Of a stretch of 64,000 nucleotides of DNA, positions 57,096 to 57,765 are shown piece after piece. How positions within the stretch are numbered: position 1 is the first letter of the stretch; every line of letters begins with the position of its first letter. This stretch comes from Octopus vulgaris (Eukaryota): assembly GCA_951406725.2 (NCBI GenBank), contig OX597816.1, forward strand, positions 84,134,001-84,198,000, given 5' to 3'. The notes below the pieces were generated by a model that saw only the letters and a list, made by a program, of their open reading frames with translations, did no database searches and was not told where the DNA came from. The position numbers were made by a program, and so were the translations under genes.

Positions 57096-57765
57096 AGTTC
57101 GTGGAGAGACACAGGCCAAGCTCTTGTTATAATGATGTATATAATAATAAAACATTTATAAAATTTACGTATGAGGCTTTATTTCCGCGCTGACCCCCTA
57201 GTAAAAATCATTAATGATTTTTAGCCTTTATTATTGTTATTATAATTAATATTTGAAAAACAAAACTTACTCCTTGATCAAAACTGTATTAACTGCAGAC
57301 TTGATTGTTAACACACTGCACGTGGCTATAAACGAAGGATATGAATTCTACTTCGCAGCATATCTCTGCGAATCTCGACGGATATAAGCTATGCGAAGAC
57401 GCAGCTCGCTTATATATTCGTGGTCACTTGTATATTTATGCCCTGGAATACCGACGCTGATGAAGGCAATAGGAATTGTTTTATTACTTTAAGCCCGAAA
57501 CACGATCATGTACGCGGTTAACCAAAGTTTTAATTAATTTTCTTTCTTCTGTTAGCCTATTATGTTGTGCGTTTTCCTCGGAGAATTTATGGTGGTTATA
57601 GTGTCTTTTGACGTCTATTTTTCAGTGCGTGGTGAGGCACAAGCCAAGCACTTGTTATAATTATGTAATTGATTATAAGATATTTATAAAATTTACCTAT
57701 GAACATTTTATTTCCGAGCTGACCATCTAGTAAAAATCATTAATGATTTTTAACGTTTATTATTA
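57096..57765 (+). mobile_element. Retrozyme/pLTR-like unit (528-nt period) with HHR
   Basis: About 140-bp direct repeats at 57096-57235 and 57624-57765; HHR at 57450-57518. Confidence 0.8.

Follow-up and report, generated by a model that had tools for sequence, protein, structure and literature searches.

The locus considered here raises the question of whether a stretch of DNA that carries a hammerhead ribozyme motif between two direct repeats is a local peculiarity or a copy of a mobile element and, if the latter, by which machinery that element has been moved. The stretch lies in a 64,000-nucleotide segment of Octopus vulgaris DNA, which was analysed as a whole and is referred to below as the window. 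The original prediction described diverged direct repeats of about 140 bp with a period of 528 and proposed that they belong to a second, independent retrozyme or solo-pLTR (pseudo-LTR) family. Local alignment of 57096-57235 with 57624-57764 confirmed the repeats, with 120 of 139 positions identical, 19 mismatches and 3 gap positions (86% identity, period 528, BLAST E 7e-39), and placed the end of the second at 57764. The stretch consists of a single 528-base unit with another copy of its last 140 bases in front and, at 669 nt, is 1.27 monomers long (669/528), where the earlier estimate was about 1.25. No further copies of the unit were found in the 64-kb window by BLAST. Tandem Repeats Finder, which has an upper period limit of 500, reported only a TTA run within the unit, and a general repeat search of the window, which is animal DNA rich in microsatellites and transposon debris, was dominated by microsatellites. 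The features of the locus are collected in Table 1.

Table 1. Features of the hammerhead-bearing stretch, in positions of the window.
Feature	Position	Strand	Basis
Upstream partial copy of the unit's 3' end, pseudo-LTR-like, 140 nt	57096-57235	+	Local alignment; left junction in X1 record 1
Full unit, 528-nt period, non-coding, 35% G+C	57236-57764	+	Multi-copy over whole length in X1 and X4
Unit 5' part, lowest copy depth, two hairpins	57236-57443	+	Contig depth, folding
Type I hammerhead motif	57444-57524	+	Sequence, pairing, shuffles, variant letters of other copies
Highest-copy segment of the unit	57569-57682	+	Contig depth
Unit 3'-terminal 141 nt, element end at 57764	57624-57764	+	Alignment, bridged right junction
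Perfect 22-bp palindrome	57202-57223		Same in both repeats
Second copy of the 22-bp palindrome	57731-57752		Same in both repeats
(AT)5 tract at left end	57086-57095		Sequence

The palindrome has remained unchanged between the repeats and lies 12 nt before the end of each. Upstream of the hammerhead there are two hairpins, one at 57352-57372 with a perfect 7-bp stem and one at about 57378-57420 with a longer stem; the region 57345-57430 folds with a z-score of -2.17 (6 of 200 shuffles as good), and within it the majority letters of relatives at 57392 and 57413 differ from the window copy. The element ends are not TG...CA, the right flank is TA-rich, and no target duplication abuts both ends, there being nothing beyond scattered 4-5-mers.

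Whether the stretch is repeated elsewhere was addressed with contigs from four of the 24 sequencing runs listed, namely X1 (organism A, DNA), X4 (organism B, DNA), X15 (organism E, kind undefined) and X22 (organism A, RNA guessed). These contigs, mostly shorter than 300 nt, were placed on 56885-58020 at 80% likeness, and 747 (X1), 1137 (X4), 24 (X15) and 57 (X22) matched the stretch, mostly at less than 95%. The unique right flank has a depth of 31 in X1 and 36-44 in X4. Depth rises to about 1060-1260 (X1) and 1210-1350 (X4) over 57303-57454, to 2873-3355 and 2857-4217 over the hammerhead and to 7096-13259 and 13906-18851 over 57569-57682, the lowest value listed within the unit being 556 (X1, at 57261). 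Unit depth is thus 18 to over 400 times that of the flank, although these ratios are rough, and since summed depth is not a copy number the family is taken, as a rough estimate, to comprise tens to a few hundred diverged relatives in the runs of three organism labels. A single-copy local duplication, which had been named as the case that would refute the prediction, is ruled out by this multi-copy status.

The depth is far from even along the unit. It peaks at 57607-57644, while the last 80 nt, with both repeats summed, reach only about 2600-3800 (X1), and nine X1 contigs depart from the unit behind 57667 into AT-rich letters. Together these observations indicate that more than one family shares parts of the unit, and 57569-57682 is probably shared with a larger or shorter sister family. 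In X15 the positions 57265-57333 are nearly uncovered, and a 983-nt contig of that run (record 12, depth 70.6) carries the hammerhead and the 3' part behind 663 nt that are unlike the unit. This contig could come from the terminus of an autonomous element, or it could be a truncated copy together with the DNA that flanks it. The portion with the hammerhead and the 3' part (57449-57764) seems to be older and shared, and the 5' part more lineage-specific. In X22, which was guessed to be RNA, 57265-57530 was without cover and the high-copy parts had some; like X15, this run is not taken as evidence on expression either way.

The junctions of the stretch are spanned by contigs. At the left, X1 record 1 covers 57071-57274 with one other letter, and at the right X1 record 8 and X4 record 31 bridge the junction with about 3% other letters; the locus is therefore no assembly artefact and, since X4 also spans the right junction, the insertion is common to organism B. 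Two X4 contigs cross the head-to-tail junction at 57235/57236, record 24 and record 25, of which the latter is from a paralogue with 13% divergence (57188-57417, 29 other letters and 13 gaps). Depth across 57227-57302 is at least 18 times that of the flank, and an X15 joint leads head-to-tail from 57735 to 57237 with 20 letters between. A second X15 joint, which 'goes back 509', was considered as a circle junction and rejected, as it is merely the repeat fitting either copy. No contig that joins two hammerheads was seen among contigs that are mostly below 300 nt.

Further joints and ends bear on how copies have been inserted. Among the 15 joints listed, of 32 in all, nine switch strand; these are at varied places inside the unit, have depths of 32-75, near single-copy, and are reported without polarity, and four of them occur in both X1 and X4. 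No pile-up of ends was found at the predicted cut site of the hammerhead, where none of the 24 loose ends listed (of 476) falls. X15 record 12 ends at a position equivalent to the end of the window copy and then continues into (TA)n, so that the evidence for a fixed 3' end is based on two copies only. At the left, the stretch adjoins an unrelated repeat (56925-57096) that has a depth of about 6000-11000 in X1 and 11000-20700 in X4 and ends in (TA)n. Thirty X1 and 37 X4 contigs of this neighbour run into (TA)n at 57096, and the unit was probably inserted into that tail, of which the (AT)5 tract is the probable target. For the neighbouring repeat, which has no Rfam match, folding gave a multi-branch structure (z -4.2) that none of 200 shuffles equalled. 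Inverted truncated copies, partial tandems and (TA)n targets without clear duplication are among the marks described for insertion of Penelope-like elements (PLEs; PMC8557442).

The letters of other copies also allow the history of this insertion to be followed. Each repeat has departures of its own from the majority, at 57134, 57169 and 57177 in the upstream copy and at 57668, 57669, 57671 and 57679 in the downstream one, and one departure is common to both (57200/57729). This is as expected of one insertion that started with identical repeats and then aged. Divergence is about 7.5% per repeat copy and, with a borrowed octopus rate of 0.0036 per site per million years (PMC13282606), the insertion would date to roughly 21 million years ago (range 12-33) if the repeats were identical at the time. 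The window copy is old and probably dead.

Between the repeats, CUGAUGA (57457-57463), GAAA (57497-57500) and GUA (57510-57512) are all present, which upholds the claim that every core nucleotide of the hammerhead is intact. The core is complete (CUGANGA, GAAA, NUH), all listed stem pairs are standard and the open end is in stem I, which makes the motif type I; on its sequence, the cut site is predicted to follow A57512. Stem I pairs 57450-57456 with 57513-57518 in 6 bp, with A57454 bulged and pair probabilities of 0.80-0.99, and continues through a 3x3 internal loop (AAU/UAA) into a distal 3-bp helix (57444-57446/57522-57524) that was absent from the first description. Stem II has 3 bp (probability 0.60), a 3x3 loop and then up to 7 bp. 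An extra A57464 stands ahead of it, facing C57496, and its base can be drawn either as an A.C mismatch (57464/57496) over 3 bp or as a G57465-C57496 pair with only 2 bp. Mismatches at 10.1-11.1 and 2-bp stems are reported to be tolerated in some active ribozymes (PMC3088659) and the axolotl HHR_Amex2 is likewise cited for tolerance at the base of stem II (PMC7229834). Stem III is limited to two Watson-Crick pairs with pair probabilities of 0.05-0.07, and 57500-57511, in the same region, is one C.A mismatch short of a 12-nt palindrome. In hammerheads of PLEs a base is characteristically left unpaired between A9 and stem II, helix II is long and helix III is palindromic (PMC4209133); here A57464 lies between A9 and 10.1, helix II is long and helix III is near-palindromic.

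The interior of stem II had been described as a long AU loop. The majority letters of other copies, which account for 1586 of 1907 depth (X1) and 1210 of 1687 (X4) at 57474 and for 1533 of 1907 and 1266 of 1687 at 57476, restore two distal pairs, so that the supposed loop is a helix that has decayed in the window copy through two substitutions. Restored in this way, stem II carries, as stem I does, an AAU/UAA internal loop (3x3), beyond which lie as many as 7 bp and a short U-rich loop, with helix II amounting to about 10 bp. One X15 contig appears, from two tables rather than an alignment, to change pair 57445-57523 from G-C to A-U. At a 15% threshold no deletion of the bulged A57454 is found among the 40 of 160 variants listed, a hint that the bulge is a family feature; the same scope limits what can be said of the conservation of the core across copies.

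A descriptor that was written after the motif had been seen gave a single match in the real window and a single one among 150 shuffled windows of 64 kb, and it matched none of 5000 shuffles of 57096-57764. A stricter scan without bulges missed the motif. The suggested check against the Rfam hammerhead model came out negative: there was no match at gathering score in the window and none at E up to 10 in 53500-58500 or 57240-57620. The window's two minimal PLE-type hammerhead motifs likewise fall below the gathering score. In the window copy the hammerhead fold has an energy of -7.6 kcal/mol against -14.8 kcal/mol for the minimum-energy fold, and the folding z-score of the region is 0.09. The motif is thus real, and self-cleavage of the window copy doubtful.

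No coding capacity was found in the stretch, in agreement with the original prediction: the longest stop-to-stop frame is 58 aa, and comparison with 104 PLE-like proteins gave only scraps at E 0.017-0.041 on mixed strands and nothing in 57236-57443. The prediction also held in that the unit shows no similarity to the 54.2-kb unit of the window, the alignment score of 29 standing against 26.2 +/- 4.0 for shuffles, of which 47 of 200 scored as high. A motif of that other unit (54341-54380, +) looks like a degenerate minimal hammerhead; it fails the descriptor and its region folds no better than shuffles. Four motifs of the window (9-20 nt) were absent from the published consensus file of Naiad, Chlamys and Hydra elements, in which line breaks may hide matches, and Octopus Naiad 3' ends labelled 'HHR_half_core' showed no likeness to the unit by eye and no motif match. 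Exact-pattern scans of viral contigs, metagenome contigs and prokaryote genomes gave 0 matches. A looser hammerhead pattern found 71 G+C-rich metagenome loci, which resemble bacterial coding sequence and were set aside, none being BLAST-similar to the unit at E 1e-4.

The window itself contains two broken Penelope-like elements with reverse transcriptase (RT) and endonuclease, at 17166-18564 and 37909-38367 on the + strand. Both have a C-terminal GIY-YIG domain and a CX2-5CxxC linker of Neptune/Nematis type, and both start right after (TA)n. Among named proteins, the RT of one has its highest identities with those of Octopus, at 82% for one from O. bimaculoides (43% of the query covered) and 65% for one from O. 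vulgaris, as against 50-59% for other molluscs. No hammerhead was seen in the 3' flanks of the two remnants, and the unit shows no similarity to these flanks (72 and 198 of 200 shuffles as high); a likeness of 57245-57290 to the end of the PLE ORF at 38367 was rejected, 72 of 200 shuffles scoring as high. Elsewhere in the window, fragments resembling Tc1/mariner transposase and LINE RT were noted by eye in translations at 199-1366, 13711-14403, 30214-31581, 32288-33093 and 44378-44611 and represent ordinary transposon debris, and the commonest SINE is an octopus one. A SINE-like repeat occurs at 20940-21270 (-) and 60745-60930 (+), with fragments at 60089-60235. It consists of a tRNA-like head with A- and B-box-like motifs (by eye), in which ARAGORN called no tRNA, an AAT/AAC run and a minimal PLE-type hammerhead (CTGATGA at 21092 on the - strand and 60806 on the + strand). 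This layout resembles the promoter-plus-hammerhead SINEs described from schistosomes (PMC6765202).

The stretch is an aged copy of a dispersed, non-coding, hammerhead-bearing 528-nt family with head-to-tail organisation, and this family has likely been spread by Penelope-like elements, as in other animals. We consider it probable that the unit is non-autonomous, was mobilised by PLE machinery and was inserted here as 1.27 monomers roughly 12-33 million years ago. As to the two labels first proposed, retrozyme and solo-pLTR, a non-autonomous unit that owes its movement to Penelope-like machinery is what the data favour. What stands of the earlier proposal is that the family is mobile, multi-copy and independent of the 54.2-kb unit; a retrozyme in the strict sense would need more than the one hammerhead at the locus.

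The alternative that survives best, if still an unlikely one, is that no self-standing 528-nt family exists and that the locus is a solo-pLTR remnant, in which a coding PLE with a long 3' UTR has left two 5'-truncated 3' ends stacked on each other, of 529 and 140 nt. The climb in depth from the 5' part to the hammerhead and beyond is what 5' truncation would give, the 663 nt of X15 record 12 could belong to the end of such a coding PLE, and most genomic PLE hammerheads are described as single motifs from truncated copies (PMC4209133). Against this, the junction is bridged by a paralogue and lies in a region (57227-57302) at no less than 18 times flank depth, whereas random truncation would have left it single-copy, and the 5' part of the unit is without similarity to PLE proteins. 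Less probable again is a classical retrozyme or satellite, in which long head-to-tail arrays would give circular RNA and inserts with permuted ends, the locus being such an insert or the stump of an array. The multi-copy head-to-tail junction would suit it, as would the lack of ends piled at the cut site and a unit length inside the range of 51-972 bp given in 10.64898/2026.07.22.740005, where monomers are common. Random permutation is, however, difficult to reconcile with the very uneven depth and with two copies that share the same 3' end, strand-switch joints are outside the description of retrozymes and the circle is not strongly self-paired. Least credible of all is a miniature LTR element of TRIM type with true 140-nt LTRs, or else a local duplication in which a motif like the hammerhead has arisen by chance: equally long direct repeats at the two ends, the silence of Rfam and an active fold that is not the minimum-energy fold would fit, but the termini and the lack of a clear target duplication do not, the repeats are not evenly over-represented as LTRs would be, the motif is absent from the 5000 shuffles, family letters repair stem II and the multi-copy status disposes of the duplication.

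For the PLE-mobilised unit the following mechanism can be proposed. Read-through transcription of a head-to-tail copy would give an RNA that the hammerhead could cut after A57512, perhaps better as a dimer through the palindromic stem III. A PLE protein would then nick (TA)n DNA and prime reverse transcription at a fixed point, 57764, which lies 252 nt 3' of the cut site, shortly after the 22-nt palindrome. The 669 nt copied would cross the cut site and run 140 nt beyond the point where copying began, and for this the template would have to be a religated circle or an uncut multimer, unless the enzyme jumped between templates; circles have been proposed as templates for more-than-unit PLE copies (PMC4209133). 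The two repeats would have been identical at insertion and would have drifted apart since. The likeliest donors of the enzyme are Neptune/Nematis-type PLEs, of which the window holds its two remnants, or Naiads, to neither of which a sequence link was found. Folded as a circular monomer the window copy gave z-scores of -0.8 and -1.3 for the hammerhead strand and 0.0 for the other strand (40 shuffles each); as this copy has aged, a young copy may fold differently as a circle.

A more specific version, which we put forward tentatively, is that the template is a circular RNA, made by the ribozyme, on which the Penelope RT has a fixed internal starting point, marked by the 22-nt palindrome. If this were true, all insertions would share one end point, would continue through the cleavage site without a cut there and would exceed one turn, and the copies would record in the genome that target-primed reverse transcription had used a circular template. 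The life cycles of retrozymes and Penelope elements would then be joined in one cephalopod element, with a hammerhead that is fuller, in its matching AAU/UAA loops in helices I and II, than has been described for either group.

Many animals, among them molluscs, are known to carry hammerhead repeats that Penelope-like elements have moved, and the kind of element is therefore not new. No description of a cephalopod hammerhead repeat was found in full-text searches of the literature, including PMC6765202, PMC3088659, PMC5786205, PMC7761336, PMC6431247 and PMC13282606 and leaving supplements aside, and the locus probably represents a new cephalopod family of known type, which supplements or repeat libraries may contain under no name. 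The copies show the Penelope insertion signature directly, in a partial tandem, inversions and TA targets, and this signature supports a connection of animal retrozymes to Penelope machinery that has been proposed and is as yet unproven. The family has tens to hundreds of copies and can be used to test whether insertions of Penelope type stem from circular RNA, and it is also suited to asking whether the hammerhead cut site is ever an element end.

Comparison with known systems places the unit between several of them. Like the animal non-LTR retrozymes (PMC7229834; 10.64898/2026.07.22.740005) it has a type I hammerhead in a short, non-coding, low-G+C head-to-tail unit, an insertion of more than unit length and PLEs coexisting with it; many monomers are described in the latter preprint, and cephalopods are covered in the text of neither paper. 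It differs from the invertebrate retrozymes of PMC7229834 in unit length (528 nt as against about 170-400 nt), and from animal retrozymes more generally in a circle that is not strongly self-paired and a hammerhead with the PLE-type extra base and long stem II. In the strict sense a retrozyme has a G+C content under 50%, a short non-coding unit, two or more consecutive hammerhead units and a highly self-paired monomer, and is expressed as monomer RNA in linear and circular form. The first two are found here (35%, 528 nt), while the locus has one hammerhead, which under the two-unit rule of 10.64898/2026.07.22.740005 means that it is not 'active', and its monomer is not highly self-paired (z -0.8, -1.3). 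With two of these tests failed at the locus, the unit, although it works like an animal non-LTR retrozyme, is classed among the non-autonomous hammerhead elements of PLE type rather than as a proven retrozyme. The same preprint derives animal retrozymes from PLE pLTRs and treats them and pLTR derivatives as one thing. A plant-type LTR retrozyme or TRIM was rejected, since the octopus hammerhead is type I and lies between the repeats, as opposed to type III inside each terminal repeat; on reading the sequence, without a formal search, no primer binding site or polypurine tract was evident.

A further resemblance is to PLEs and their pLTR hammerheads (PMC4209133, PMC8557442), with which the unit shares the partial tandem pseudo-LTR, strand inversions and (TA)n targets that lack a clear duplication and, in the ribozyme, the unpaired base 5' of a long helix II and the palindromic helix III (PMC4209133). 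Unlike PLEs it has no RT-endonuclease ORF and no sequence match was found to an autonomous family, the published Octopus Naiads included, and unlike the minimal PLE hammerhead it has a long helix I (6+3 bp) and a helix III with two Watson-Crick pairs. The non-autonomous Chlamys PLEs, in contrast to the octopus unit, are from green algae, mostly lack canonical hammerheads and have 3' similarity to autonomous families (PMC8557442). These elements, such as MRC1, which was once mistaken for an LTR element, are nevertheless like the octopus unit in being non-coding, in having pLTRs and in their head-to-tail insertions (PMC8557442).
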